Shown in pieces: positions 2,563 through 48,612 of a DNA stretch of 64,000 nt (position 1 is the first letter of the stretch; each line of letters begins with the position of its first letter). The translations under genes were made by a program, and so were the position numbers. The DNA lies in assembly GCA_017631635.1 (NCBI GenBank), contig JAGBSX010000042.1, forward strand, positions 2,330 through 66,329, written 5' to 3'. This stretch comes from Clostridia bacterium. GTDB lineage: Bacteria > Bacillota > Clostridia > Christensenellales > RUG350. The notes under the pieces were generated by a model. The model saw only the letters and a program-made list of their open reading frames with translations, was not told the DNA's origin and searched no databases.

Positions 2563-2598
2563 ATAGGGTAGCACTCTCGGTGCTACCCTATCTCGTTT
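2563..2598. terminator. Hairpin terminator between convergent genes
   Basis: atagggtagcac / gtgctaccctat 12-bp stem followed by ctcgtttta. Confidence 0.65.
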
Positions 2599-2605
2599 TA
2601 TTCCA

Positions 2606-3238
2606 TTACATAGGATATCCTACGTATTTATTCTCTACCTCTAGGATATCAATATTGCCAAGGCAAGTATCTCTCAATACTTGGTAATGCCTCTCCTCTT
2701 GTCCTTGCTGTATACACAACACCAAACTCACTCTCTCGTCGTATATCTTGTCCTCTACTATCACCTGTTGGTCCATTAGATATCTCTCCACACTCCTCAG
2801 ATGCGTATAGTCAAAACTCACACGCACCACCGTAGAGGGAGCATATCTACTCACACCACATAGGTCTAGCACTCCACTACAAGACTTGACGTAAGCACCC
2901 ACTAGACCATTAGCGCCTAGTTTGATACCTCCAAAATATCTCACACTCACTACGCACACTTGCCTAAGATTTCGCTTGCGAATCACCTCTAGCATAGGCA
3001 TACCAGCCGTACCTTGTGGCTCTCCATCGTCGCTAAATCTCATCTCGTTGCCACCTATATCCGTGATATACGCATAGCAATAATGCGTAGCCATAGGATA
3101 TAGACCTCGCACCTCGTCTATGAAGTCCTTGGCTTCGTCTTGTGAGGTGACTACTCTGGCCAATGAGATAAATCTACTACGCTCTATGACGTACTCGTAG
3201 GTAGCAGGGCTTGTGATAGTCAAATATTCTCTCATCAC
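2606..3238 (-). CDS. yigZ: YigZ / IMPACT family protein
   Basis: 210 aa. SRFIS...ATHYCYAY...[15 protein letters not shown]...[18 protein letters not shown] matches conserved IMPACT-family blocks. Confidence 0.8.
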
Positions 3239-4434
3239 AATACCAACTTAATTCTATTCTTCTTGCCCTTGTATAGCACGCACTCGCCCTTGAGCATATC
3301 CTCGGTGATCTCGGCATTGACGTCGGTGACCTTGTCGTCGCCTATACGCACGCCACCACCCTCTATGAGTCTGCGAGCCTCTCCCTTGGATGGAGCGAAC
3401 TTGACCTCTACTAGTATGTCTACTACTCTGCCAGGCTTGACGGTGGCAGTAGCCATATTTGAGGTATCCCCACTAAAGGCTGCCTTGACCTGAGCCTCTA
3501 CCTTGTCAGCCTCATCTTTGCCGTGTATCATACTAGTCACTTCGTAGGCTAGCACTCTCTTCGCCTCGTTGATACGCTCGTCTTGGTACTTGGTGAGTTC
3601 TCTGATCTGCTCCATAGGCATAAAGGTCAACAACCTCAAGCACTTCTCTACGTCGGCATCATCTACGTTTCTCCAATATTGATAGAAGTCATATGGAGTA
3701 GTCTTGTCCTTATCAATCCATATAGCACCCTTGGCAGTCTTGCCCATCTTCTTACCTTCGGAGGTGGTGAGTAGTTCAAAGGTCATAGCATACGCTGGAT
3801 CTCCACTCTTGCGTCGTATGAGGTCTGCACCTGCCAATATATTTGACCATTGATCGTCGCCACCACATTGTAGTTTGACGCCATACTTGTCGTGTAGCAC
3901 CAAGAAGTCGTAGCCTTGCATAAGCATATAGTTAAACTCCAAGAAGGATAGTCCTTTCTCCATACGTGACTTGAAGCACTCTGCAGTCAACATACGATTG
4001 ACAGAGAAGTATGCTCCTATATCTCTCAAAAAGTCTACGTAGTTGAGGTCTAGTAGCCAGTCTGCATTGTTGACTATGATAGCGGCATTTTCTCCTGTAA
4101 AATCCAAAAACTTGGACATCTGCACCTTGAAGCACTCTACGTTGTGATCGATAGTCTCCTTGGTCATCATAGCGCGCATATCAGTACGACCTGATGGATC
4201 GCCAACCATAGCAGTACCACCACCTATGAGTATGATAGGCTTGTGTCCTGCCTTTTGTAGCCAACTCATTACCATTAGTTGAACAAAATGTCCCACGTGT
4301 AGGCTATCTGCAGTAGGGTCAAATCCTATATAAAATGGTACGCTCTCACTACCTAGTAGTTTGTACAAATCCTCCTCGTACACGGTTTGCTTGACAAATC
4401 CTCTAGCACGTAGGGTATCCAATATATTTTCCAT
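3235..4434 (-). CDS. tyrS: Tyrosine--tRNA ligase
   Basis: 399 aa. HIGH motif (LHVGHF), KMSKS motif (KMGKT), C-terminal S4-like domain ([17 protein letters not shown]). Confidence 0.95.
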
Positions 4435-4466
4435 AACATCCTCCGATATGGTCTAAATTCTACAGT

Positions 4467-4495
4467 ATTATAGCACGAACAGACCAATATATCAA
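4467..4495 (-). promoter_or_regulatory. Sigma-70-type promoter of tyrS
   Basis: Minus strand reads TTGATA-17 nt-TATAAT, about 30 nt upstream of the GGAGGA RBS and the ATG at 4434. Confidence 0.6.
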
Positions 4496-4557
4496 CAAAA
4501 AATCAAGGTCTAGGGGCTTTTTTGGACAAATACCACAAAAAAATCGAGACTATCTCC

Positions 4558-4591
4558 CCAAAAAATAAATCAAGCGAGCAAATCTGCTCGC
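4558..4591 (-). terminator. Intrinsic terminator after the 87-aa ORF
   Basis: gcgagca-aatc-tgctcgc hairpin followed on the minus strand by ttgatttatttttt. Confidence 0.7.
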
Positions 4592-4598
4592 CTGATTA

Positions 4599-4862
4599 TC
4601 AATTTAACTGTATAGGTAGTGTGGTATCGTCGAGGTCTATGATAGCCATAGGATAATCTCTCATACGCACCCATTTAGCACCGATTTCTTTGAGGTAAGG
4701 ATATGCATAACTAGGATCGTACAATCCTGCATCAGCCTTCTCTAGCCCCACACCTATAGGAGAGGTGGAGATGTCGGCAGTCTTTAGAAAATTTAATTTA
4801 CCTATCTTATTGACACCCGAACGTGTAAGTTTGGTCTCACTCTCTTTTACGTCAAAAAACAT
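4599..4862 (-). CDS. Hypothetical 87-aa protein
   Basis: Strong RBS (aaaaggaggctaat-ATG). No family recognised. Confidence 0.4.
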   Translation of the reverse strand: MFFDVKESETKLTRSGVNKIGKLNFLKTADISTSPIGVGLEKADAGLYDPSYAYPYLKEIGAKWVRMRDYPMAIIDLDDTTLPIQLN

Positions 4863-4976
4863 ATTAGCCTCCTTTTGTTGATTATATTATATCTTATCGA
4901 AAAACGCACAATCTATCATTATTTAATGAAAAAATGTGCGTTTTTTAATTATCTAATTATTTCACTATGCGTTTTG

Positions 4977-5207
4977 CTATATTTTTTTAATATTTTCATT
5001 TTTTGCAGACTTGACTTTCTTGACCAATATATATGCTAGTCCACATAGAGCATTTAGCCCCCACGATATAGGATAAGTGATACCTATCATCTCTATCTCC
5101 GTCCACATAGGCAAGAATATCTCTATGAGCAGTATCCTAGATAGTAGTATGCTAAATAGCGAAAAGATAAACGGTGTCAAAGTATCACCACTACCTTGAT
5201 TATTCAA
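4977..5207 (-). CDS. Small hydrophobic ORF, possibly a C-terminal remnant of a multi-pass membrane protein
   Basis: 76 aa with two hydrophobic spans. Sits in an AT-rich, gene-poor stretch. I did not check it for an RBS. Confidence 0.25.
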   Translation of the reverse strand: MNNQGSGDTLTPFIFSLFSILLSRILLIEIFLPMWTEIEMIGITYPISWGLNALCGLAYILVKKVKSAKNENIKKI

Positions 5208-5373
5208 ATAAATTGTACTCCCCTAAAGCCACAAAATCAACTATTTTTTAGTAAAACTTTATAAAAATTCATATGAATTTCATTACTGCAAATAAATGCC
5301 CTATATAGATTGTTTTATAATAGGGTAATATAAGGTTTTATTACTAATTTTAATCAAATAGTATTATTATTTC

Positions 5374-5402
5374 TTTACATTTAGAGTATATTGGTGTACA
5401 AT
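5374..5402 (+). promoter_or_regulatory. Sigma-70-type promoter of the lipid kinase gene
   Basis: TTTACA-17 nt-TACAAT. The predicted start site falls after the first ATG (5405), which argues for the ATG at 5426. Confidence 0.5.
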
Positions 5403-5425
5403 ATATGAGTACAAGCGAGGAAATT

Positions 5426-6310
5426 ATGTATCATATTTTTTCAAACCCTAGGTCCAAGTCAAATCGTGGCAATCGCACACTCAACAAGGTTGAGCGTATT
5501 TTGCAATCTCGAGGAGTAGACTTTACCTCGTACGTATGCTCTACCCCAGAGGTAGCCAAGGTTCAACTTGACGAGATAATAGCCTCCGGTGGTGGCGACA
5601 TCATAGTAGTAGGTGGAGACGGCACACTATTTAATATAATCAATAGCATATCCGACTTTAGCAAGATACGTATAGGTATAGTGGCTGCAGGTACAGGCAA
5701 CGACTTCGCTAGGACTCTCAAAGTTAGCAAAAATCTAGAGGACTCTATAGACGATATACTCTCACCTGATACTCACACTATAGACATTATGCAAGTAGGC
5801 GACTACAAGTGCGTCAACGTAGCAGGTACAGGACTAGATATAGAGGTACTCAAGCGTTATAACAAGATGAAGTTTTTTGACGGCAAGATCAAGTATTATC
5901 TAGCGCTACTCATTACTTTGTTTAAGTTTAGATTTTACAAACTACGCGTCACACTAGGCGAAGACGAGCCATTTGAGGTAGACGGCATGTTTGTATCGGT
6001 AGGTAATGGCAAATATATCGGTGGTGGCATGAACGCCGTCCCAAATGCTCGCCCAGACGACGGACTCCTCGACGTGACTATCGTGCGTAGTCTACCAGGC
6101 ATCAAGATAGTCACCAACCTACTACATTTTCTAAAAGGCAATCATCACAAGAGCAAATACATAGACTCCTACACTACTAGAGGTCCTGTCAAAGTAGAAA
6201 TACTAGAGGACACCCAGACTATACAGATGGACGGAGAGATGAAAGATAGCAAGTTTGAGTGTAGCATTATCCCAAATGCTATCACACTACTCAACACCAA
6301 ACAATATTAA
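5426..6310 (+). CDS. Diacylglycerol/lipid kinase family protein (YegS/BmrU-like)
   Basis: GGDGT motif (VVGGDGTLFNII) and a GTGNDFAR block. Start moved from 5405 to the ATG at 5426, which has a GAGGA RBS. Confidence 0.8.
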   Translation: MYHIFSNPRSKSNRGNRTLNKVERILQSRGVDFTSYVCSTPEVAKVQLDEIIASGGGDIIVVGGDGTLFNIINSISDFSKIRIGIVAAGTGNDFARTLKVSKNLEDSIDDILSPDTHTIDIMQVGDYKCVNVAGTGLDIEVLKRYNKMKFFDGKIKYYLALLITLFKFRFYKLRVTLGEDEPFEVDGMFVSVGNGKYIGGGMNAVPNARPDDGLLDVTIVRSLPGIKIVTNLLHFLKGNHHKSKYIDSYTTRGPVKVEILEDTQTIQMDGEMKDSKFECSIIPNAITLLNTKQY

Positions 6311-6311
6311 T

Positions 6312-6346
6312 AAAAAGCACACTTTATCGCTAGAGTGTGCTTTTTG
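6312..6346 (+). terminator. Intrinsic terminator
   Basis: gcacact...agtgtgc stem followed by ttttt. Confidence 0.7.
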
Positions 6347-6375
6347 TATATCTCAACTATCTACCCCCCCTACCA

Positions 6376-6403
6376 TACAAAAAGGAACGACTTGAGTCGC
6401 TCC
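6376..6403 (-). terminator. Intrinsic terminator after the large lipoprotein gene
   Basis: ggagcgac-tcaa-gtcgttcc hairpin on the minus strand, followed by tttttg. Confidence 0.6.
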
Positions 6404-6415
6404 TTTTTTTGTTGT

Positions 6416-9082
6416 TTAGGCTATCTTGGTGATCTCTTTGGTATCAGTATTTATCTTGTAAAGATGACTATCTCCGCCTACTCCACCTAGAAGATAATTA
6501 ACGAAATATACGTCATTTTCTATAACTGTAATAGCCTTAGTGTAATAAGTCACTCCAGATACAGTTCTCTCCATTATCTTGGTAGCAGTATTTGAATTCG
6601 TATTCACTACGTAAAGTCCTGCTTTTGCATTGCTGATAGTATCCGAATAGATGTATACCTTATTACCACTATTTGATATCTCCACAGGGTCTACGTCCAT
6701 TATCCACCTAGCATATCCACTACCGTCTACGTTGACTTTAGATAGACATCTGCTAATTCCATAAGTCTCACGGAAATATACTACTCCGTCACTTATCTCA
6801 AATACGTTGACTTTTGGCCCGTCAAATACTAGAGTTGCCTCATCTTGGACATATCCGGTAGTAGGCATCTTGTAGAGTTTGTTTCCATTCTCAAAGTAGA
6901 TATATCCATCATAATAGCGTAGGTTGTTTACTCCACTAGAGTACATCATATCGTGAGTACCATCACTCTTGATAACGTGTATAGCAGTAGTAAAACCACC
7001 AGCATTTTTCTCTACGAAGAATACGTTTGTACCATCTCCACAGATATCATTACAATCATAGGTAGATATCTTCTCGGCTACTCCACCAGTCTTGAGGTTG
7101 ATGCGATACATATCGTTGTTGACTATCCAACTCACAGTATTGATATATAGATAATCTCCTATGATACTGAAGTCAACCACCTTGTTTGAAGATATCTTGA
7201 CGCTAGTACCTGTGCTAGGATAATACGCATACAAACACTTATCTTTGTACAAATCTAAGTAATATAGTACTCCATTGTACTCTAGTGTCTTTGAACCCAA
7301 ACTTAGTGGTGTGTACTCAGGTATCTCAAATCCATCTAGTACCTCTACCATTGTATTATTAGAAAGATTGTGGATAATTAGCATTTGGTCGCTTACACGA
7401 TAGTATGCCACTTTGTCGTCACTTATCTTTGTCAATGAAGAATATGTGTCATCTCCTACCAGTTTAGTGCCAGGCAACGAATTGTCCACGGTAGGATATG
7501 CATTGACGTAGTATATACCATCTCCAAAAGCAGATGACGTGAGCAAATCTACGTTGACATAATACAATTTGTTTCCTATCAAGGTGAGATTAGCACCTGC
7601 ATCAATAGTGAGTTTTCTCGTAGCACCATTAGATATCTTATAACTAGCGATATAGTTGCCTAGTAGATTGTCTACTGTGTAGAATAGATATCCGTTGTCT
7701 AGGGTAAGTGTAGAGATTTTTTCATCTACTACTAGTGTCCTAGCAGTACCACTAGTAGACATTTTTGATAGTTTGTAACCGTTAGCACCATCTGCAAAGT
7801 ATAGGTATCCGTTATAATATTGTAGATACTTAGCCTTGCCTGCTGACAATAGAGTAATAGTAGGCTCTTCACTTCCATTTAGAGTTAGTTTGTATATACC
7901 ACTGCTTGATTGTGTTAGTGCGTTTTTGACAAAATACAAATTAGTACCGTCACTTACTAGATATTCGCCACTCTCTCCAGCTATAGAACTGAGAGAGCCG
8001 TCGCTGATAGATTTAATAGAAGAAAATAGTGATTTGCTTCTAAAATATATATCATCTCCTATCATAGTGAAATTGTATGGTATATCACTAGATATTCTAG
8101 ACACCTCGCTACCGTCATACGCATACAAATAATCTTTGTCCAATGCGTTTGCAAAGTACAACACACCGTCGCTATACAATATATGTCTCTCTGCATCAGA
8201 TCCTTTGATGACCATCTTAGCAGTTAGAGTGAGAGTATGGTAATTTGGATTAGTAATAGTAACCGTTATGTTATAAGTACCACTATCAGTAGCAGTATTT
8301 GTCATACCACTATTTCCCTCACAAGTGTACGTAATGCTAGAGCCTTGTGGTGGTTGTCCTACTATCTCCAACGTCTTGGGATTGCCGTCATACTCAACAC
8401 TCTCGTCTCCAAAACTAATACCACTCATAGTAGCCTTGTTAATAGTCAAAGTGGCAGTTAGAGTGAGAGTATTGTAATTTGGATTAGTAATAGTAGCCGT
8501 TATGTTATAAGTGCCACTATCAGTAGCAGTATTTGTCATACCACTATTTCCCTCACAAGTGTACGTAATGTTAGAGCCTTGTGGTGGTTGTCCTACTATC
8601 TCCAACGTCTTGGGATTGCCGTCATACTCAAAACTCTCGTCTCCAAAAGTAATACCACTCATAGTAGCCTTGTTAATAGTCAAAGTGGCAGTTAGAGTGA
8701 GGGGGTTGTATCCTTCTCCAGACAATGTAGCAGTCGCAGTATATTCACCTGCGTTAGTAGCCATATTGTTTTGATAAGATACGTCTACACCACTAGGGAT
8801 ATTTCCACTCACCAATAGGGTGTGGATATTTCCATCATATGTATAAGTAGCATTAGCAAAACTTACTCCTGTGATATTCTCTAGGGTAGGATCGCTAGTA
8901 CCACCTGTAAGAGTCTCTCCACAACCATCACATACATAATCATTGTTGGTATCTATATGAGTATGTGGTGGAGGAGTATCTCCACCTCCGTCACTAGGAG
9001 TACAAGCGACTAGTCCAGCAGTCGACACCATAGCGACAGATATCAATATCAGCGCTATTTTTTTGAAAAATGAATTATTCAC
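6416..9082 (-). CDS. Large surface lipoprotein: N-terminal MBG-like Ig repeats plus a DUF5050-like beta-propeller region
   Basis: 888 aa, GTG start with an AAGGAG RBS. Lipobox STAGLVAC. Repeats of TLTATLTINKATMSGI.FGDES.EYDGNPKTLEIVGQPPQGS.ITYTCEGNSGMTNTATDSGTYNIT. The C-terminal 550 aa carry many recurring hydrophobic Y/F...LY(F/Y)-type blades. Confidence 0.8.
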   Translation of the reverse strand: MNNSFFKKIALILISVAMVSTAGLVACTPSDGGGDTPPPHTHIDTNNDYVCDGCGETLTGGTSDPTLENITGVSFANATYTYDGNIHTLLVSGNIPSGVDVSYQNNMATNAGEYTATATLSGEGYNPLTLTATLTINKATMSGITFGDESFEYDGNPKTLEIVGQPPQGSNITYTCEGNSGMTNTATDSGTYNITATITNPNYNTLTLTATLTINKATMSGISFGDESVEYDGNPKTLEIVGQPPQGSSITYTCEGNSGMTNTATDSGTYNITVTITNPNYHTLTLTAKMVIKGSDAERHILYSDGVLYFANALDKDYLYAYDGSEVSRISSDIPYNFTMIGDDIYFRSKSLFSSIKSISDGSLSSIAGESGEYLVSDGTNLYFVKNALTQSSSGIYKLTLNGSEEPTITLLSAGKAKYLQYYNGYLYFADGANGYKLSKMSTSGTARTLVVDEKISTLTLDNGYLFYTVDNLLGNYIASYKISNGATRKLTIDAGANLTLIGNKLYYVNVDLLTSSAFGDGIYYVNAYPTVDNSLPGTKLVGDDTYSSLTKISDDKVAYYRVSDQMLIIHNLSNNTMVEVLDGFEIPEYTPLSLGSKTLEYNGVLYYLDLYKDKCLYAYYPSTGTSVKISSNKVVDFSIIGDYLYINTVSWIVNNDMYRINLKTGGVAEKISTYDCNDICGDGTNVFFVEKNAGGFTTAIHVIKSDGTHDMMYSSGVNNLRYYDGYIYFENGNKLYKMPTTGYVQDEATLVFDGPKVNVFEISDGVVYFRETYGISRCLSKVNVDGSGYARWIMDVDPVEISNSGNKVYIYSDTISNAKAGLYVVNTNSNTATKIMERTVSGVTYYTKAITVIENDVYFVNYLLGGVGGDSHLYKINTDTKEITKIA
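8220..8687. repeat. Two tandem 234-bp (78-codon) coding repeats inside the lipoprotein gene
   Basis: Copies at 8220-8453 and 8454-8687 differ at 6 positions by hand alignment. A third, diverged copy starts at 8688. Confidence 0.9.
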
Positions 9083-17753: not shown

Positions 17754-17770
17754 GACAATCTCAAAACTAA

Positions 17771-17808
17771 AAACACACTAACTCGACGATAAGTTAGTGT
17801 GTTTTTTA
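17771..17808. terminator. Bidirectional terminator shared by folA and the TIR-LRR gene
   Basis: acacactaact-cgacgat-aagttagtgtgt hairpin flanked by an A-run and a T-run. Confidence 0.8.
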
Positions 17809-17832: not shown

Positions 17833-19425
17833 TTATGCGTGATGAGGGATATCTCTGATATCGCAGTATCTAGCAGCGTCAGAGTTGTCACTACACACGA
17901 TAGTCACACCCTCGCAACCATTGAATAGTCCCCAACCGAAGTCGTGCACGCTGTCTGGTATGACTACCTTCTTGAGAGAAGTACAACCTCTAAATGCAGT
18001 ATCATCTATCTTGTTGACACTATCTGGCAACACTATCTCCTCTATGGAGGTACAAGCGTAAAATGCTCCCTCTCCTATCTCTACTACGCTATCAGGGATA
18101 GTGACGGACTGGAGATGGCTACACTCACAAAACGCCCAGTCACTAATCACGGTCACGCTATCTGGCACTTCGTAAGTAGTAGCATCTATCTGACAAGGAT
18201 AGCAGATGAGAGTAGATTTGTTCTTGTTGAACAATACTCCGTCTAGTGACTTAAACCACTTATTTTTGGGGTCGACTAGTATACTCTCTAGTTTGCCACA
18301 GCCTCTAAATGGTCCAGAACCTATATTCGTCACCGACATAGGTATAGTGATACTCTTTAGGCTCTTGCAGTCCTTAAAGGCATTTTTACCTATCTTGGTG
18401 ATATTGTTCTTCATATCGATATTCTCTAGTTCTACACAGCCATTAAACACCATATCGTCTATCTTGGTGACGAACTGTGGTATATCTATACTCTTGAGAC
18501 TAGCGCAATCAGCAAAAGAACTCTCGCCTAGTATAGTCAATTTCTTGGGAAGTTTGATGTCCACTAGAGCCTTACAACTATTGAATACTCCACCATATAT
18601 CTCCGTCATCTCGTCGTTGAGGGAGACGTCTACCAGATTAGCGCAGTTCTCAAATGCTCTCTCGCCTAGTTCGATATCGTCGTTCTCCACCACTAGTTTG
18701 GTGAGGGATATACAGTCTCTAAATGCACTCTCGCCTACTTTTCGTACGTTTTGAGGTAGATATACGTATTCTAGTTCTTTGCAACCTCTACAAGCCTCTT
18801 TTCTGAGTTCTTGCACTTCGTCGCCTATGTCTAGTTTCTCTAGTTTGACGCAATTTTTGAAAGCGCCCTCTCCTATCACCTTGACACCACTAGGCACGCT
18901 TAGATGATTAGAACCATCTTTGCACTTGAGTAGCACTCCGTCCTCTACCTCTAGACTACGCATAGTCTCTATAGGTAGACCTGAGATAAGTTTTTGGATA
19001 TATTTGTCAGAGCCTGCATTGACACCTTTGACGTGCTGAAGATTTTCTAGTATCATCTTGAGCGCTGGAGGTATCTCTACGTCGTCGCTAAGATATATAG
19101 GATATATCTTTTTGTTATTTTTGTATGCGGTGATTATCTCCATACCACAGTACTTGGACTGCAACGCCGAATTGGACAAAAATAGCAAAAAGGCGCTACA
19201 ATTCTCTATCCTTACTCGGAGTTCTTCTCTGAAGTCCTCTCCTATCTCCATAGTGTCGTCGTACCAAAAGCGAAATTTCTCTCTATCTATCATTTTGAGA
19301 ATTCTATACACCTCTTGGCTATCTCTATGAGAATAACTAATGAATATGTACGGCTCGTTGCCCTCATACGAATTGAGGTCCATCTTGACAAAATCATCTT
19401 GCCATTGTGCGTTTGTCTCTTGCAT
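17833..19425 (-). CDS. TIR domain protein fused to BspA-type leucine-rich repeats; no signal peptide
   Basis: 530 aa. TIR blocks: YIFISYSHRD, FWYDD, AFLLFLSNSALQSKYCGMEI (conserved Glu present). Then about 13 repeats with an F-x-x-C-x-x-L core (GAFKNCVKLEKLDI, SAFRDCISLTKLVV, and so on). Confidence 0.8.
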   Translation of the reverse strand: MQETNAQWQDDFVKMDLNSYEGNEPYIFISYSHRDSQEVYRILKMIDREKFRFWYDDTMEIGEDFREELRVRIENCSAFLLFLSNSALQSKYCGMEIITAYKNNKKIYPIYLSDDVEIPPALKMILENLQHVKGVNAGSDKYIQKLISGLPIETMRSLEVEDGVLLKCKDGSNHLSVPSGVKVIGEGAFKNCVKLEKLDIGDEVQELRKEACRGCKELEYVYLPQNVRKVGESAFRDCISLTKLVVENDDIELGERAFENCANLVDVSLNDEMTEIYGGVFNSCKALVDIKLPKKLTILGESSFADCASLKSIDIPQFVTKIDDMVFNGCVELENIDMKNNITKIGKNAFKDCKSLKSITIPMSVTNIGSGPFRGCGKLESILVDPKNKWFKSLDGVLFNKNKSTLICYPCQIDATTYEVPDSVTVISDWAFCECSHLQSVTIPDSVVEIGEGAFYACTSIEEIVLPDSVNKIDDTAFRGCTSLKKVVIPDSVHDFGWGLFNGCEGVTIVCSDNSDAARYCDIRDIPHHA

Positions 19426-19439
19426 AATCTTCTCCTCCC

Positions 19440-20744
19440 CTATAATACTATGCTCAATCCTACTAATGCCATGATTAGCGTAGGTATCGCTATAGTGACT
19501 CCTATCTTTAGAAAATCTAGATACCCAAATTTGTGTCCATGCTCATTGAGTATAGACCCCCACATTATACCTGCTAGTGCTCCTATAGGCGTCATAAATG
19601 CGCCTAGATTTGAGCCAATCACAGTAGCGAATACTGCTCCACTCAATCCCTCTACAGCCCCCAGAGATGACAATATAGATGAGAATAACACACTCATAGG
19701 TATATTGTTGATGAGGTTTGAGGCGATAAAAGAGGTGACACCGTACTTAAATATCAAGCCTCCCTCTCCCAAAGCCCCTGCTATGAGAGTAGTCACACCT
19801 GCACTATCTAGCGCCACTATGATGACGAACATAGACAGTACGAAAGGTATCAACTCGTATGGACCTCTCCTCAAGGTGTTGGCTAGTAGAGTAGGTCGTT
19901 CTCTCCTCACTATAGATATGATGATAGTCACCACCACCAGACTCACTACGCTAAATAGTGATACTAGCCACATCTCTATATTGATATACGAACCTATCGC
20001 TAGTAGTAGAGTACATATCGCTAGATGCGCTATACCTACTATTAACAAGGTCTTATCACCCAAGGCTATATCCTCTGCCTCCCCAGATATAGGTTGGCGA
20101 AGATGCTTGCCAAACACTAGACAAAGCATACCAAATGCAGTAGCACCTGCTATGATAGTAGGCACTATCATCACTCCTAGATAATCTACAAATCCTATAC
20201 CTAGCGCGGTAGACAGATAAATGTTGGTAGGATTACCTATGATGAGAGCCATACTCCAGGTGTTGGCGGCTACGAATTCTGCCGCGAGGTAAGGTATAGC
20301 GTTTATCTTGGCATTTTTGGCGAAATAACATATAAAGGGGGTAAATGATAGTACTATTATATCGTTTGAGGTAAATACAGTCAATACCGACACCGTGAGG
20401 TATAGATACAAAAACAACTTGAATTGACCGTTTTTCGCCTTCTTGAGAGTGACGCTAGCGAGGTATCTAAAGAAACCTAATTCGTCCAAAAATATAGACA
20501 TCAACGTCATAGATATGAATAGTACCAGTATCTTGAGAGGATTGATAGCCGTATCGGCGAGCAACGCACCAGTCACCTCGGAGACGTCCACTAGTCCTAG
20601 TAGTATGAGCGTCAATGCTCCCAGTAGAGTGACTACCCAATAAGACGATAGCGCAATCTTGCCCAACTTAATCTTGGGCAAGAATAAGACTGCTAATATC
20701 ATCAATATACAGGTGATAGCGCTAAGCACTATAGTAATTATCAT
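19440..20744 (-). CDS. ArsB/NhaD (IT superfamily, CitMHS-like) permease
   Basis: 434 aa, roughly 12 TM helices, typical permease composition. Ends 14 nt upstream of the TIR-LRR start. Confidence 0.7.
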   Translation of the reverse strand: MIITIVLSAITCILMILAVLFLPKIKLGKIALSSYWVVTLLGALTLILLGLVDVSEVTGALLADTAINPLKILVLFISMTLMSIFLDELGFFRYLASVTLKKAKNGQFKLFLYLYLTVSVLTVFTSNDIIVLSFTPFICYFAKNAKINAIPYLAAEFVAANTWSMALIIGNPTNIYLSTALGIGFVDYLGVMIVPTIIAGATAFGMLCLVFGKHLRQPISGEAEDIALGDKTLLIVGIAHLAICTLLLAIGSYINIEMWLVSLFSVVSLVVVTIIISIVRRERPTLLANTLRRGPYELIPFVLSMFVIIVALDSAGVTTLIAGALGEGGLIFKYGVTSFIASNLINNIPMSVLFSSILSSLGAVEGLSGAVFATVIGSNLGAFMTPIGALAGIMWGSILNEHGHKFGYLDFLKIGVTIAIPTLIMALVGLSIVL

Positions 20745-20928
20745 AAAATCTCTCTCTTATATACTTAGTATATAATTTATGATAGCACACGATATCTAGG
20801 TGTGTCAATGATATTATATTTTTTTGCCAAAAAATAACCGTACAATATACATACTACGTCTATATAACTTGACTTGCACTCAAAAAAAGTAGTAAAGTAT
20901 ATTATACTATAACACCGAGAGGTAAAAA

Positions 20929-22761
20929 ATGCACGCAAATACCTTATGCCTAATAGCATTGATATTATCCATATCTATCACCCTAGCATCTACCGTGATG
21001 GCTCTAGTCAAGAGAAAAAATAGGCTAAATCTCAAGCCTTACTCTCTCAAACCTCTATGGACTATGGTCATAGGCGTATTTGTAGCAGGAGTGGTGATGT
21101 TTTTGCCTACCTACCTACTAGACTACTTCGCCACCATAGACCTCGTGGTCGTGATAGATTCGGTGATACTATCTCTACACAATGCTATACGTATGTTTGT
21201 CATAGATATAGACTTTGAGCCAATCGCTCAACTGATGGCAAATACGGAGGTAGACTCCACCATAGCGAGCGTATACTCTATCTACGCATCTATATCCTAC
21301 GTGCTAGCCCCTATCCTATCGGCAGGAGTAGTATTGTCATTTTTCAAAAATGCATCTGCTATGCTCAGATACCTACTACACTCTCCAGCCAACTTCTACT
21401 ATATGACTCAACTCAACGAGAAGTCTTTGGCGCTAGCAGAAAATATCCTAAAAGACACCGACAACGTGGTGATATTTACCTCTATCAACGACAATAGTGA
21501 TGAAGATATGGTATATAGAGCCAAGTCTCTAGGCGCTATATGTCTATACGTGGATATCGCAGATATGTATATCAAGACCCCTACCCTAGACCACGTATCC
21601 ACTATATATTTCATATCATTAGACGAGGACAAAAACCTAGAGCAAGCCTTGACTATGCTCAAAAAAGCAAACGTAGACAAGAGACTAGACCACCCAAATT
21701 ATCAAATGTACGTATTTTGCCGTTCGGTAGAGAGTGGCATCATACTAGACAATGCTCCCAATTCAAATATAAGACTACGCCGTATCAACGAGGAGCGAAA
21801 TCTAGCGTATCGCATAGTACAATCTCACTCTATATTTGACGACGCTATCGTGGACGCAGATATCAAGCGCATCAACCTACTAGTAGTCTCCGAGACAAAC
21901 CACAATACCAATTTGTCTATGGAATTAGTCAAGACTTTGTCATGGTGCACCCAAATGCCCGGATACGACGTCAAGATACACGTGGCTGATATGAGTGGCA
22001 ACTTTGAGGATTTGCTACGAATATCCTCTCCCGAACTCATATCCCTCAATCACAAACATATAGAGGGAGACGCCAAGGTAGACATATATTTTTACCAAAA
22101 ACCCAATTTGCGTGAATTGGCGTCCACTATCGGCGAAGTGTCTACTGTATACACTATGCTCGAAGATGACGAGGCAAATATAAATAGCGCCATCATACTC
22201 AGAGAGGAGTTTGGCAAACTACATCTATCCAAATCCATAGCAATACCCACCATATTCGCTACCGTACGTAGCCCAGAGAAAAATGAGACCATCTCCAGTA
22301 ACGGCTCTCTCAAGGACCACAAAGGCAACGACTATGGCATCACTCTCATAGGCAATATTGCCTCAGAGTATTCTGTCGAGGTAGTGGAGCAAATAGACCT
22401 AGAGACCAAAGGTCTCAAATGTCATCTACGCTGGTCAAATACCTTGGGCGAGGTAGAATCAAATACACTTCTCTATAACGAATACGAATATTATCGCCGT
22501 GCATCTATATCCGAGGCGCTATATAGCGAACTACGTATAGCGCTAGGCATACTACTCACCGACGATAGCCAAAGTAGAGAACTGCTCAAGATGTATGAAC
22601 ATATGCGTTGGAACGCATATATGCGCACAGAGGGATACGTGTACGGTGCTATCCGTGACGAGATAGCCAAGACACATCCATCACTAGTACCATACCAAGC
22701 ACTCTCCCACGCAGAGAAACAAAAGGATGAAGAAGTACTACTAGCATCCGAAGTAGACTAA
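20929..22761 (+). CDS. Membrane protein with a degenerate Rossmann-like middle region and a C-terminal RyR domain
   Basis: 610 aa with 4-5 N-terminal TM helices. The C-terminus MYEHMRWNAYMRTEGYVYGAIRDEIAKTHPSLVPYQALSHAEKQKD matches the RyR-domain consensus (H..W....GW.YG......HP.LVPY..L...EK.KD). Confidence 0.65.
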   Translation: MHANTLCLIALILSISITLASTVMALVKRKNRLNLKPYSLKPLWTMVIGVFVAGVVMFLPTYLLDYFATIDLVVVIDSVILSLHNAIRMFVIDIDFEPIAQLMANTEVDSTIASVYSIYASISYVLAPILSAGVVLSFFKNASAMLRYLLHSPANFYYMTQLNEKSLALAENILKDTDNVVIFTSINDNSDEDMVYRAKSLGAICLYVDIADMYIKTPTLDHVSTIYFISLDEDKNLEQALTMLKKANVDKRLDHPNYQMYVFCRSVESGIILDNAPNSNIRLRRINEERNLAYRIVQSHSIFDDAIVDADIKRINLLVVSETNHNTNLSMELVKTLSWCTQMPGYDVKIHVADMSGNFEDLLRISSPELISLNHKHIEGDAKVDIYFYQKPNLRELASTIGEVSTVYTMLEDDEANINSAIILREEFGKLHLSKSIAIPTIFATVRSPEKNETISSNGSLKDHKGNDYGITLIGNIASEYSVEVVEQIDLETKGLKCHLRWSNTLGEVESNTLLYNEYEYYRRASISEALYSELRIALGILLTDDSQSRELLKMYEHMRWNAYMRTEGYVYGAIRDEIAKTHPSLVPYQALSHAEKQKDEEVLLASEVD

Positions 22762-22849: not shown

Positions 22850-24034
22850 TTAGCCCTCTACTGTCTCCTCTGCTGGAGCGTCTACTACCTCTTCTACTTG
22901 AGGTGCTACGTACTCCTCCATGAAGATATTGCGCTCGGTAGATGGATCAAATAGTTGGATATGGTTAATGTCGATAGCCAAGTCAACCTCGGTATCTACT
23001 GCTATAGTAGAGTGTGGATTAACTCTAGCGATTACGTCGTTCTCCTTGCCGTCGATAGCGATATATACTAGAGTCTCACTACCCAACTTCTCGACTACGT
23101 CGATCTTGCCTCTGAACAAAGAATCCTTGAACTCTGCTACCTTATCCTCGTCGTCGTGTATATCCTCTGGTCTGACACCCAAGATGATAGGTCTGTCAAA
23201 TCTCTGTGACTCTGGGATACGCTCTACTACCTTTGAGGACAAAGTGATGGCATTTTCACCAAACTTAACCTTGGCAGTCTTCTTATTGAAGGTAATCTCT
23301 CCCTCAAACATATTCATCTGAGGAGTACCGATAAATCCTGCTACGAACATATTGATAGGATAGTCGTATAGGTTTTGTGGAGAATCTACCTGTTGGATAT
23401 ATCCGTCCTTCATAACTACGATACGAGTACCCATGGTCATAGCCTCTACTTGGTCGTGTGTGACGTATATAAAGGTAGTGGCTAGTCTGTGGTGTAGTTT
23501 GGTAATCTCAGTACGCATCTGACCTCTTAGTTTAGCATCGAGGTTGGATAGAGGCTCGTCTAGCAAGAATACCTTTGGCTCACGAACGATAGCACGTCCT
23601 AGCGCAACTCTCTGACGTTGACCACCAGATAGGGCTCTAGGCTTACGGCTGAGGTATTGGGTGATACCTAGTATCTCGGCTGCATCTCTGATACGACGAT
23701 CTATCTCGTCCTTTGGGGTATGGCGAAGTTTGAGACCAAATGCCATATTGTCATATACAGTCATGTGTGGGTATAGAGCATAATCTTGGAAAACCATCGC
23801 TATATCTCTATCCTTAGGGAGAGTCTCATTGACGTATACACCGTCTATGAGTAGTTCACCTGCGCTAATCTCCTCTAGTCCTGCTATCATACGTAGAGTA
23901 GTAGACTTACCACAACCAGAAGGTCCTACGAGGACTATAAACTCCTTGTCCTCTATCTCTAGGTTAAAATCAAATACTGCTTGCACGTTGTTTGGATATA
24001 TCTTGTCGATATGTCTTAGTGACAAACCTGCCAT
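22850..24034 (-). CDS. Sugar ABC transporter ATP-binding protein (MalK/UgpC/MsmX family)
   Basis: Walker [10 protein letters not shown], signature LSGGQRQR, Walker [10 protein letters not shown]-terminal TOBE-like domain. Start trimmed to [13 protein letters not shown] (AAGGAGG RBS). Confidence 0.9.
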
Positions 24035-24104
24035 AATTGTTGCCTCCTTAAAGCAAATTATTTTTAATTGTATATATAATAACAAACTTTTAATTATAAT
24101 GCAA

Positions 24105-24146
24105 GGACAATTTGCATATATTTTAGGACAATTTGCATATTTTATA
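24105..24146. repeat. Two tandem 21-bp direct repeats upstream of the ABC ATPase gene
   Basis: ggacaatttgcatat occurs twice, starting at 24105 and 24126. Confidence 0.85.
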
Positions 24147-24183
24147 TGTTTTTGAGCCAAAAAAAACTTTTTTCTCAAATCGC

Positions 24184-24212
24184 TTGACACCCTCACCTGC
24201 CTAGAGTATAAT
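24184..24212 (+). promoter_or_regulatory. Consensus sigma-70-type promoter driving the TPP riboswitch and thiT
   Basis: TTGACA-17 nt-TATAAT, exact. Confidence 0.75.
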
Positions 24213-24221
24213 ACCCCTAGA

Positions 24222-24310
24222 CAAAACTGCTGGGGGTGGCGAAGATACTTCGCCTGAGATACACTCTTTGAACTTGAACGAGGTCATACTCGCGTAAGGA
24301 AGCGTATATT
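24222..24310 (+). promoter_or_regulatory. TPP (THI-box) riboswitch
   Basis: ctgggggtg...cctgagat...gaacttgaacgaggtcatactcgcgtaaggaag parallels the THI-box core (CUGGGGUG, CUGAGA, ACCUGA..GG.UAAU.CC.GCG.AGGGA). A ThiT gene follows downstream. Confidence 0.8.
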
Positions 24311-24390
24311 ATACGAAATATGAGTACCATAGCACTATTTTAGTCTAGGTACTTTTTATTTTGTCCCCCTTAAAAAAAGGAGGTACACGT

Positions 24391-25434
24391 ATGTTTTTGT
24401 CAAGTATTGTATTATTTATTAGCGAAGGGGCGGGACTATATATCTCGCTCGGTATGATTGTACTAGCGCTAGTGTTGGCTCTAGTTCTTTCTAGCAAAAA
24501 TGCCAAGAAGGTCTTTCTATATCTTAGCGCAATACTCACTCTAGTATGGTTTTTGGCTGTATCTATAGACAATATTAGCGCATATTTTTCTCAACCTAGT
24601 GAGGATAGAGAATTTGACTATTCTATGTGGGCTATGTTGATAGTATTTGTCGTGATACTACTATCGTCTATCACGGCTATTTTGCTAAATAAGTCACGCA
24701 GGCTCACCCCTATATTGTCAACTGCACTCATAGCGCTACCTATCGTGGCAATAGTGATATCATTTTTGCTAATCCCTCTAGGCTACGAAGACCAACTAAT
24801 GACTGATAGTGACAAAGTATTTATAGTACTCACTACCATAGTCATTGTACTATGTCTACTATTCGCCACGAAGTTGGACAAGCCTACCAGCCACACTCAC
24901 ACACAGTCGATAGTGTACGCATCTATCTGTATAGCGCTATCTTTCGCGCTATCCTACACTACCCTATGGCAAATGCCCCAAGGAGGTAGAGTGACCATAG
25001 CCTCTCTACTACCACTTATGTTGTATTCATACATATTTGGAGTTAGACGTGGTATAAGCGCAGGCTTTATATACGGACTATTGCAATTTATCCAAAATCC
25101 ATATTTCGTGAGTCCTTGGCAATTTTTGCTAGACTACTCACTTGCCTTTGCTTGCATAGGACTAGCAGGCGCATTTAGAGGACTAAATATTCACTCCTCT
25201 ATCAAATTCTCAATAGGCGCGATAGTCGCAGGTGTATTTAGATATCTATGCCACGTATTTAGTGGAGTATTTGCATTTGGTATGTATGCTCCAGTAGAGT
25301 TGGGGGCTTGGGGATATTCGCTAGGCTACAATGCTTACGTATTTATAGACCTAATCATAGTTATCGTCGTAGGCGCTATAGCACTCTCTAGCAAACAACT
25401 CATCAACGCATTTCCCAGAGAGTCCCAAAAGTAG
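24391..25434 (+). CDS. thiT: ECF-type thiamine transporter S component ThiT with a ~165-aa N-terminal multi-TM extension
   Basis: The C-terminal half (GVRRGISAGFIYGLLQF...QFLLDYSLAFACIGLAGAFR...WGYSLGYNAY) aligns with ThiT as I remember it. Start set at the ATG with an AAGGAGG RBS. Confidence 0.7.
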   Translation: MFLSSIVLFISEGAGLYISLGMIVLALVLALVLSSKNAKKVFLYLSAILTLVWFLAVSIDNISAYFSQPSEDREFDYSMWAMLIVFVVILLSSITAILLNKSRRLTPILSTALIALPIVAIVISFLLIPLGYEDQLMTDSDKVFIVLTTIVIVLCLLFATKLDKPTSHTHTQSIVYASICIALSFALSYTTLWQMPQGGRVTIASLLPLMLYSYIFGVRRGISAGFIYGLLQFIQNPYFVSPWQFLLDYSLAFACIGLAGAFRGLNIHSSIKFSIGAIVAGVFRYLCHVFSGVFAFGMYAPVELGAWGYSLGYNAYVFIDLIIVIVVGAIALSSKQLINAFPRESQK

Positions 25435-25520
25435 TACCTAAAAAAATCTAGCCTTTTTGCTAAAAAATACTTTGCATTTGGGCTAGTATTGTGATATGGT
25501 ATATACACACGGAGGATATT

Positions 25521-26090
25521 ATGTACGATTTTTTTGCATATATGAGTAGAATGAAGTATATCAAACGATGGAGTTTGATGCGCTCTACCGAAGAAGAGAA
25601 TATAATGGAGCACTCTCTACAAGTAGCCATGATAGCGCACGCTTTGAGTGTGATTAAGAACTTGTATTTCGGTGCTAATCTCAACCCAGACCGTATAGCA
25701 GTACTCGCTATGTATCACGAATCTAGCGAAGTAATCACAGGCGATTTGCCTACTCCTATCAAATACTCCAATCCTACTATCTCTGCTGCGTATAAGCATC
25801 TAGAGAAACTAGCAGACGACAAACTACTCACTATGCTACCTAGTGAGATGAAGAATTATTATCAAGATATCATCAAGCCGGATGCCGAGGAGTACAAGAT
25901 AGTCAAGATGGCAGACAAGATATCTGCTTATCTCAAATGCCTAGACGAACTCAAGAGTGGCAACAAAGAATTTTTGCGAGCCAGAGACGCTCAACTTATG
26001 GACATAGAGGCAAATATCACTGAGGAGGCTAGATACTTCTTGGACAATTTCGCTCCGTCGTTTGACAAGTCGCTAGACGAACTAAACTAA
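25521..26090 (+). CDS. HD-domain 5'-deoxynucleotidase (YfbR-like)
   Basis: YIKRWSLMRSTEEENIMEHSLQVAMIAHAL...YHESSEVITGDLPTP. Start at the ATG after a GGAGGA RBS. Confidence 0.8.
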   Translation: MYDFFAYMSRMKYIKRWSLMRSTEEENIMEHSLQVAMIAHALSVIKNLYFGANLNPDRIAVLAMYHESSEVITGDLPTPIKYSNPTISAAYKHLEKLADDKLLTMLPSEMKNYYQDIIKPDAEEYKIVKMADKISAYLKCLDELKSGNKEFLRARDAQLMDIEANITEEARYFLDNFAPSFDKSLDELN

Positions 26091-47835: not shown

Positions 47836-48612
47836 ATGAACAAATTATCCAAAATAATCATCACTATAGCCACTTTGCTAGCCGTATTTACTGCATCTGC
47901 TTGCTACGTAGCACCCGACGACGTAGATGCTTATCCTTGCACTTATCGAAAGTTGGATGCCTACTCCACCACTCCAGGGTACTACTTGACCAAATACGTA
48001 GATCCTTCAGAAACTGTAGACAACGTCACCGTAGGTGGACAACTCAATGGTCTAAATATCGTAGGTGTAGGTGATTTGTCATTTAGACGATCACAAAATA
48101 TCGCCAAGGTCACTCTGACTGATACTATTTTGTATATCGGCAACGGAGCATTTGCAAACTCCGACGTAGCAGTCGTCAATCTTGGCAAAAATGTATGTGA
48201 GATACGAGATATAGCCTTTAGTGGATGTGAGTATCTAGCATCTATCAATCTCCAAAACACCTCTATCACGGCAGTCAACGGTGGCACTTTTCAAAATTGT
48301 ACTGCACTCACCTCTATCACGATACCTAGTGGTGTGACTTATATAGGCGAATACGCTTTTGCAGGGTGTACTGCTCTCAAGACGGTATATCTCCCTCGCA
48401 CAGTCACGACACTAGAGGTGTCTTGTTTCAAGAGTTTGTATGTATCTAGCAACGGCTCATGCCAAATCAGATATGAGGGCTCTAAAGCAGAGTGGGAGGC
48501 TATCACCAAGAGAGTGGGCGAGTCCTATGACGACAATACAGCAGGTGAGCCTCTATACTGGTACGGTATGGGAGAACTCCTCTACGACGTTCAATTTAAT
48601 TGCGCCAACTAA
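47836..48612 (+). CDS. Lipoprotein with BspA-type leucine-rich repeats
   Basis: 258 aa. Lipobox FTASAC. Repeats GAFANSDVAVVNL, IAFSGCEYLASINL, GTFQNCTALTSITI, YAFAGCTALKTVYL. Confidence 0.8.
   Translation: MNKLSKIIITIATLLAVFTASACYVAPDDVDAYPCTYRKLDAYSTTPGYYLTKYVDPSETVDNVTVGGQLNGLNIVGVGDLSFRRSQNIAKVTLTDTILYIGNGAFANSDVAVVNLGKNVCEIRDIAFSGCEYLASINLQNTSITAVNGGTFQNCTALTSITIPSGVTYIGEYAFAGCTALKTVYLPRTVTTLEVSCFKSLYVSSNGSCQIRYEGSKAEWEAITKRVGESYDDNTAGEPLYWYGMGELLYDVQFNCAN

Follow-up and report, generated by a model that had tools for sequence, protein, structure and literature searches.

Can a bacterial protein in which a TIR domain is joined to an array of leucine-rich repeats (LRRs) act by itself as receptor and effector, or is it one component of a larger system? 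The question is raised by an open reading frame (ORF) in a 64,000-nucleotide (nt) stretch of a Clostridia bacterium genome (assembly GCA_017631635.1, contig JAGBSX010000042.1, positions 2,330 to 66,329; hereafter the window), whose product, TIR-LRR, had been interpreted in a preliminary description as a minimal one-gene receptor-effector. The gene follows a permease gene and is recurrently linked to the gene for RyR-TM, a transmembrane (TM) protein with a C-terminal RyR domain. This recurrent TIR-LRR/permease/RyR-TM linkage may indicate a TIR signalling pathway of bacteria that has so far escaped description.

The ORF has exactly the coordinates assigned to it in the preliminary description, and all TIR hallmarks quoted there are present, with YIFISYSHRD at residues 26-35, FWYDD at 53-57 and SNSALQSKYCGMEI at 84-97. 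Searches with hidden Markov models assign residues 27-136 to the Pfam family TIR_2 (E = 2.7e-18; 67 bits, cutoff 28) and the repeats to LRR_5 (E = 1.9e-81), which places the protein in the BspA-like family PF13306; both E-values are well past chance expectation. The AlphaFold2 model (mean pLDDT 89.6), a check that had been proposed at the outset, combines alternating beta and alpha elements over residues 27-127, as in a TIR fold, with an LRR solenoid. Glu96, already recognized as occupying the catalytic position, is shared by all of 36 homologs and by three relatives from other phyla, and it aligns with the catalytic glutamate of SARM1, AbTIR, Cat1 and plant TIRs in single-sequence as well as profile searches of the PDB. 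The closest solved sequence relative of the domain is Cat1 (profile match 7.7e-6), a TIR that degrades NAD+. The domain thus shares the features of NADase-type TIRs, namely a catalytic glutamate in a conserved helix and a flavodoxin-like fold; with a mean top-residue frequency of 0.79 it is the best conserved region, and TIR-LRR looks catalytically intact. PADLOC returned weak, generic ThsB-type TIR matches (best 2.3e-7; ThsB_TIR 5e-4), and in NCBIfam the LRR-adhesin matches were partial and the TIR matches weak.

The previous estimate of about 13 BspA-type LRRs holds as well. Thirteen repeats of 23 residues with an xF..C motif were located at residues 188-372 and 431-500, and the solenoid carries an insertion of ~36 residues at 385-416; the predicted structure has a 23-residue period and 15 strands when the caps are counted. 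The top Foldseek matches are the BspA-type LRR crystal structures 4fs7 (7.5e-17), 4gt6, 4cp6 and 6mlx, including PcpA and TpLRR. As the full model returned LRR neighbours only, the TIR domain was compared through PDB sequence and profile searches instead. TIR and repeats are separated only by a 36-residue linker (137-172), modelled as a helix and a hairpin, and, as stated before, Pfam, NCBIfam and PADLOC scans of the protein gave no match to NB-ARC, STAND or any further NTPase family. Signal-peptide-like, TM-like or anchor segments are likewise absent from TIR-LRR (maximum 19-residue Kyte-Doolittle mean 0.92, compared with 2.4-3.0 for two neighbouring membrane proteins), and its predicted location is cytoplasmic, in agreement with the preliminary description. 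A full-length query against representatives gave 396,347 matches, of which the best 150 were all LRR_5 surface proteins of 1,600-8,000 amino acids (aa); since the search was swamped by these giant multi-repeat proteins, it provides no census of the TIR-LRR family. A separate, LRR_5-only protein of 258 aa is encoded in the window at 47836-48612 (+), 28 kilobases (kb) away in a context unrelated to TIR-LRR.

Upstream of TIR-LRR, 14 nt separate the stop codon of the permease gene from the TIR-LRR ATG, and a strong ribosome-binding site (RBS) starts within this gap; sequence reading and a terminator scan revealed neither a promoter-like site nor a terminator between the two genes. The best promoter-like site of the region lies 5' of the permease gene, and the sole strong terminator hairpin lies between the TIR-LRR stop codon and the convergent DHFR gene. 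As read from the DNA sequence, permease and TIR-LRR form one operon with TIR-LRR as its second cistron. The permease matches CitMHS (5.6e-35) and ArsB (6.3e-28) in Pfam and the arsenical pump 10tp in the PDB (1.2e-23) over its full length, and its ~10 hydrophobic segments correspond to about 10-12 TM helices, as in ArsB/CitMHS transporters. In contrast to ArsB itself, the protein stays far under the cutoffs of the NCBIfam ArsB models (150, 138 and 129 bits against 457, 760 and 415), and no ars genes were found nearby. It is therefore not an ArsB equivalog, and its membership holds at the level of the superfamily only.

A species scan with one genome per species identified 58 TIR-LRR loci with flanks of 6-10 kb; most come from gut Clostridia that are uncultured and carry the labels Christensenellaceae, Oscillospiraceae or Eubacteriales. 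Wherever a Clostridia locus includes sufficient upstream DNA (52 loci), a permease gene lies immediately 5' of TIR-LRR on the same strand. These permeases are 54-69% identical, and the stop-to-ATG gap ranges from 12 to 122 nt with a median of about 24 (46 loci). The wider flanks vary by species, with gyrAB/DHFR in the window and ilv/leu, rnpA/yidC or spoIIA elsewhere; as the permease always adjoins TIR-LRR while its surroundings change, the pair moves as one unit. Permease and TIR-LRR show correlated pairwise identities (r = 0.79), as could result from shared phylogeny alone. Full-length TIR-LRR relatives with 47-52% identity were found in Gordonia araii, Nesterenkonia alba and one Cloacimonadota metagenome-assembled genome (MAG). 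There, the gene order is TIR-LRR, a shorter CitMHS permease and a large membrane protein with a RyR-like C-terminus; TIR-LRR and short permease are separated by 3 nt in locus L057 and overlap by 4 nt in L059. The permease operon and the recurrent RyR-TM linkage speak against the minimal one-gene receptor-effector.

Additional TIR genes are found at a few TIR-LRR loci, namely the L006 type, L048 and L057, and this restriction led to their rejection as part of the module core. L006 represents a small TIR-rich cluster of one Oscillospiraceae species: a protein with TIR_2 and 12 MORN repeats is encoded directly 5' of the permease/TIR-LRR pair (5150-6499, +), outside any RyR-TM locus, and a 302-aa TIR_2 protein (2943-3851, +), followed by HAD_SAK_2 and Metallophos genes, lies further upstream. 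In the Cloacimonadota locus L057, TIR-LRR is preceded by genes for a DUF4062 (TIR-like) protein (2979-3545, +) and an 820-aa TPR protein (3520-5982, +). In size and architecture, the latter is reminiscent of a TIR-TPR protein (PDB 9m0n) that is also a sequence match of the window TIR.

The candidate signal receptor or effector, RyR-TM, is encoded divergently from the permease/TIR-LRR operon across a 184-bp intergenic region. In its AlphaFold2 model (pLDDT 88.7), four TM helices at the N-terminus lead via a long connecting helix to two Rossmann-type domains; the C-terminal domain is helical. Foldseek matched the middle part to TrkA (4g65/4j9u) and to the gating rings of BK/Slo1 and CASTOR/DMI1, and the C-terminus reaches 31.5 bits against a cutoff of 27.4 for Pfam RyR and matches PDB RyR repeats down to 2e-15. 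Among 44 homologs with 30-86% identity just 19 columns are invariant, and H558, W561, H583 and D600 belong to them; with a RyR domain and the conserved H/W/H/D residues, RyR-TM qualifies as a member of PF02026. The spacing of these four residues (+3, +25, +42) equals that of phage RyR-domain proteins, which were described in two 2026 preprints to bind or cleave the TIR products 2'cADPR, 3'cADPR and cyclic ADP-ribose (cADPR) (PMC13232231; 10.64898/2026.06.04.730250). In RyDEP, H75/W78/H100/D117 are the cADPR-ligand residues (PMC13232231), and in RyR Tad the ligand residues are H129/W132, K147/H154 and K170/D171 (10.64898/2026.06.04.730250), of which the K147 and K170 positions are occupied by R576 and K599 in RyR-TM. 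RyR-TM is a far better candidate for effector or receptor than TIR-LRR alone.

RyR-TM homologs adjoin the TIR-LRR module, upstream or downstream, in 15 of 56 species loci, and five orders of the three families were observed: a divergent arrangement, RyR-TM/permease/TIR-LRR, permease/TIR-LRR/RyR-TM, the order TIR-LRR/permease/RyR-TM of Gordonia, Nesterenkonia and Cloacimonadota, and RyR-TM/TIR-LRR/permease from metagenomic loci. Five gene orders over three phyla are hard to account for without a functional link. Viewed from the RyR-TM side, a TIR gene lies within 8 kb in 16 of 80 metagenomic loci or, after dereplication at 70% identity, in 12 of 36 lineages, a minimum estimate in view of the many short contigs. 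These TIR partners display at least five architectures (TIR-LRR5, TIR-TM-LRR, TIR-HD, TIR-LRR5-CutA1 and short TIRs), and the cytoplasmic TIR-LRR5 partners come with a short permease. Two or three different TIR genes surround a single RyR-TM gene in L090, L093 and L114.

In L070 (7837-9801, +), a 650-aa protein begins with a TIR_2 domain, which is followed by one TM helix (189-222) and, towards the C-terminus, by classical LRR_4/LRR_8 repeats; relatives were found in L090 (12745-14703), L098, L103, L110, L129 and L148. The genes for these TIR-TM-LRR proteins, whose membrane topology resembles that of Toll-like receptors, adjoin a RyR-TM homolog or lie within 3 kb of one. Other TIR fusions on the RyR-TM side include a TIR-LRR5-CutA1 protein (L114:9781-11394, +), CutA1 being a divalent-ion-tolerance domain, a 999-aa TIR...HD_3 protein (L090:9715-12714, +) and a 386-aa TIR-X protein (L093:12540-13700, +). 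In two of the multi-TIR loci, a transglutaminase-core protein of ~437 aa is encoded 5' of RyR-TM (L090:6646-7956, +; L114:4687-6006, +) and may be an additional system component. In L009, a second, divergent RyR-motif protein (~740 aa, 'EQEHERWNSFM') is encoded on the minus strand at ~330-2550, in tandem with RyR-TM at 2587-4350. In the window, RyR-TM is flanked (22850-26090) by genes for a MalK-type ABC ATPase, a Thia_YuaJ-domain membrane protein and a YfbR-like HD phosphohydrolase, and an equal gene set surrounds the RyR-TM homolog of L069 (2996-7884), which has no adjacent TIR-LRR/permease pair. These common flanks suggest that the RyR-TM position is ancestral and that the TIR-LRR/permease pair is mobile. 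The Thia_YuaJ protein (24361-25434, +) carries its domain at residues 184-342 after a hydrophobic N-terminal extension of ~180 residues with a weak 7TMR-DISM_7TM match; either the fusion is an unusual one or the ORF was called too long.

Taken together, TIR-LRR can be read, at an even balance of confidence and doubt, as the sensor and signal-making enzyme of a multi-gene, Thoeris-like module that would lead from a TIR via an ADP-ribose (ADPR)-derived signal to a RyR protein and ion flux. In this model, the cytoplasmic LRR solenoid would bind a conserved ligand or partner, for which the co-translated permease is a possible candidate, and binding would drive self-association of the TIR domains. 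Given the conserved active site, Glu96-dependent cleavage or cyclisation of NAD+ could then yield an ADP-ribose-derived signal of the cADPR-isomer class, to be bound, and possibly hydrolysed afterwards, by the RyR domain of the 4TM-tandem-RCK-RyR protein. Fold, ligand residues and gene linkage point to a role in which RyR-TM, together with the permease, would alter the flux of ions or solutes over the membrane. For TIR-LRR, nucleotide signalling is more likely than plain NAD depletion.

A number of observations weigh against this model, which as a whole is built on sequence and predicted structures. RyR-TM lies within 6 kb of TIR-LRR in only about 27% of loci, and RyR-TM homologs with no TIR nearby occur in L067, L069, L071 and a 40-locus human-gut cluster. 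The H/W/H/D ligand residues are general to PF02026 and do not single out the RyR-TM family (PMC13232231), so that they point to a domain that is probably competent for a ligand and do not imply signal specificity. Neither the permease nor RyR-TM has a match among the PADLOC models, and the permease has no explained role in the proposed scheme. The LRRs evolve with an omega of 0.015-0.12, unlike typical phage sensors. Finally, guilt by association failed: a census of 143 nearest-neighbour genes from ~45 species revealed no defence-gene enrichment beside the module. The preliminary description had suggested a search for such enrichment and had named housekeeping contexts as evidence against its proposal; with mostly housekeeping flanks, this evidence was in part obtained. 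Most of the neighbours are metabolic, no family recurs more than four times, and strong PADLOC matches are sporadic, with a single one each for AbiO, Nhi, SoFic, DrmC and AriA.

If the mechanism is right, does the module serve defence or physiology? Anti-phage or stress immunity was given just under an even chance, and non-immune ion homeostasis or physiological signalling was considered a serious possibility that falls somewhat short of even. TIR chemistry, the Thoeris-like layout, the multi-sensor loci, the TIR-like and TPR neighbours in L057 and cross-phylum transfer were counted for defence. Against it stand a mean column identity of TIR-LRR of 73% across 36 homologs, an alignment in which no hypervariable LRR surface was found, a scan of 2.9 million viral contigs that yielded LRR-only relatives alone and none of TIR-LRR, and a GC content of 0.422 for the module compared with 0.423 for the window. 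The scan of viral contigs led to the rejection of a phage or prophage origin of TIR-LRR. A recent horizontal transfer of the module into this genome was rejected as well, on account of the native GC content and the absence of mobile-element genes among its neighbours. Omega values of 0.01-0.12 in TIR and LRR (11 close pairs with estimable dS) indicate strong purifying selection. The module is strongly conserved and looks vertically inherited.

The main rival to the signalling model, unlikely though not negligible, considers TIR-LRR a soluble regulatory subunit that docks on the permease and tunes transport without a nucleotide signal, comparable to ArsA docking on ArsB or to the cytosolic LRR domain regulating LRRC8 channels. 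The TIR domain would then serve as an oligomerisation scaffold or NAD+ sensor, and the RyR-TM linkage would reflect a common theme of ion homeostasis. Such a role agrees with the near-absolute permease linkage and its tight, probably translational coupling, with the housekeeping flanks and native GC content, and with the fusion of a related TIR-LRR5 to CutA1; purifying selection over the whole of TIR-LRR and the level of cross-phylum identity are what would be expected for an obligate complex subunit. However, a pure scaffold would not need the catalytic glutamate and the neighbouring TIR motifs, which are invariant, and the linkage of RyR-TM to many unrelated, permease-less TIR architectures argues for a diffusible TIR product. 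A clearly smaller chance falls to a reading in line with the one-gene sensor of the preliminary description, in which TIR-LRR is an autonomous abortive-infection sensor whose LRRs detect a phage component and whose TIR domain depletes NAD+, with the neighbours being irrelevant. The apparently intact NADase-type TIR and its relationship to Cat1 fit such a sensor, and single-gene TIR-TPR defence systems are known in E. coli (PMC11350192); yet neither the linkage in 52 of 52 loci nor a trio kept over three phyla would be expected for a lone gene, and defence-island enrichment, diversifying LRRs and family members in viral or mobile contexts are all missing.

BspA-type LRRs are typical of gut and oral surface and adhesin proteins, and most family members stem from gut MAGs, so that gut commensals might be imagined to use the protein as a secreted or host-directed TIR effector, with LRRs engaging host receptors, along the lines of TcpC, BtpA and TirS. 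This scenario is highly improbable: signal peptide, anchor and secretion-system neighbour are absent, the permease of the operon moves solutes rather than proteins, and full-length relatives with equal partner genes are carried by Gordonia, Nesterenkonia and Cloacimonadota.

Among known systems, Thoeris (types I-XI) is the best functional match for the module, which would represent a Thoeris-like arrangement with new sensor, effector and partner types. Common to both are a TIR_2/ThsB-like domain with a catalytic glutamate, a neighbouring protein with a domain type that binds cADPR isomers elsewhere, and, at some loci, a single effector-like gene surrounded by several TIR genes that differ from one another. 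Thoeris loci with several thsB genes are known. Unlike Thoeris, the window module combines its TIR with a large C-terminal BspA-type LRR, has a 4TM-tandem-RCK-RyR candidate effector and an obligate ArsB/CitMHS permease, and lacks the defence neighbourhood used to define Thoeris types. Membrane and ion-channel effectors are also known from Thoeris (types II, VII and X). For a 2025 systematic survey of Thoeris (29 types), a keyword search of the main text gave no RyR, LRR or transporter effector term, and its text-form supplements contain no entries for RyR, PF02026, LRR, CitMHS, PF03600 or ArsB. According to the same text, only TIR clusters enriched beside defence genes were retained, and this filter may be the reason why the module is missing there. 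The preliminary description knew of no characterised bacterial TIR-LRR, and the literature searched on bacterial TIR-LRR, BspA with TIR, and RyR with Thoeris or TIR describes neither such a protein nor the module.

The RyDEP glycosidase and the RyR Tad sponge share with RyR-TM the PF02026 Repeat12 fold and an H-x2-W...H...(K)D pattern at identical spacing. Both are soluble phage proteins of small size, and host signals are destroyed or sequestered by them. The RyR domain described here, in contrast, sits at the C-terminus of a cellular membrane protein genetically linked to a TIR gene, which would imply a host-side receptor or a signal-terminating role. As in plant TNLs and animal TLRs, TIR and LRR share one polypeptide, and the active-site glutamate is common to TNLs, SARM1 and TIR-LRR; the RyR-type domain of the linked partner recalls the SARM1-cADPR-ryanodine receptor axis. 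In contrast to TNLs, TIR-LRR has no NB-ARC/STAND module, and in contrast to TLRs, it has no TM helix or extracellular LRR, although related loci encode a TIR-TM-LRR variant (L070 type). The BspA (LRR_5) repeats are unrelated to TNL and TLR repeats beyond the general solenoid, and the resemblance is most likely due to convergent domain shuffling. The best sequence and structure matches for residues 173-515 are BspA-like surface proteins of the Bacteroides, Treponema and PcpA type; these are secreted or anchored, whereas TIR-LRR lacks a recognizable export signal and carries an N-terminal, putatively enzymatic domain. The positions of all features are listed in the table.

Table. Coordinates of the TIR-LRR/permease operon and the divergent RyR-TM gene in the window
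Feature	Position	Strand	Basis
TIR-LRR coding sequence, 530 aa	17833..19425	-	ORF list, Pfam, AlphaFold2
TIR domain, residues 27-136	19018..19347	-	Pfam TIR_2 and PDB profile matches
Predicted catalytic Glu96, codon GAG	19138..19140	-	Alignment to catalytic Glu of known TIRs
BspA-type LRR solenoid, residues 173-515 (13 canonical 23-residue repeats, caps, one insertion)	17881..18909	-	Pfam LRR_5, AlphaFold2, Foldseek, motif positions
Permease, ArsB/CitMHS-type (ion-transporter superfamily), 434 aa, operon cistron 1	19440..20744	-	Pfam, PDB, hydropathy
RBS GGAGGAG, 6 nt before TIR-LRR ATG	19432..19438	-	Sequence read
Promoter-like TTGACA-18-TATCAT with extended TG, upstream of permease	20779..20808	-	Best match of the region, 11/12
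Terminator hairpin, 15-bp stem, T-runs on both strands	17769..17806	.	Terminator scan and sequence read
RyR-TM, 610 aa, candidate signal receptor/effector	20929..22761	+	Pfam RyR, homolog linkage, AlphaFold2
RyR-TM N-terminal membrane region: 4 hydrophobic helices and long helix (residues 110-150)	20929..21378	+	Hydropathy, AlphaFold2
RyR-TM tandem Rossmann/RCK-like domains	21391..22428	+	Foldseek
RyR domain (Repeat12-type, PF02026)	22486..22755	+	PDB RyR repeats, invariant columns

A wider interpretation is more speculative and, on present evidence, rather doubtful. It holds that gut Clostridia might possess a core-genome second-messenger pathway outside defence islands, which some Actinobacteria and Cloacimonadota would have received by transfer. 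In it, TIRs tagged with LRR, MORN, HD or TM-LRR modules would produce a cADPR-type nucleotide, to be read out by the RyR domain of an RCK-gated membrane protein in cooperation with an ion-transporter-type permease. This pathway would be the counterpart, possibly the evolutionary source, of the animal SARM1/cADPR/ryanodine-receptor axis and the cellular origin of phage RyR anti-Thoeris proteins, and it would serve housekeeping physiology or a fixed, non-mobile immunity.

If the signalling model is true, an LRR sensor class and an effector class formed by an RCK-RyR membrane protein and a permease would be added to bacterial TIR signalling, in lineages and contexts that surveys based on defence islands exclude by design. 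It would also provide the first cellular bacterial setting for a RyR Repeat12 domain reading TIR-derived nucleotides; the debated link between cADPR and ryanodine-receptor-type domains would become testable, and a source of the phage RyR sponges and glycosidases would be suggested. Strong conservation and a housekeeping context would then raise the possibility that, beyond their function as immune alarms, TIR-derived nucleotides serve as ordinary second messengers for bacterial ion flux.

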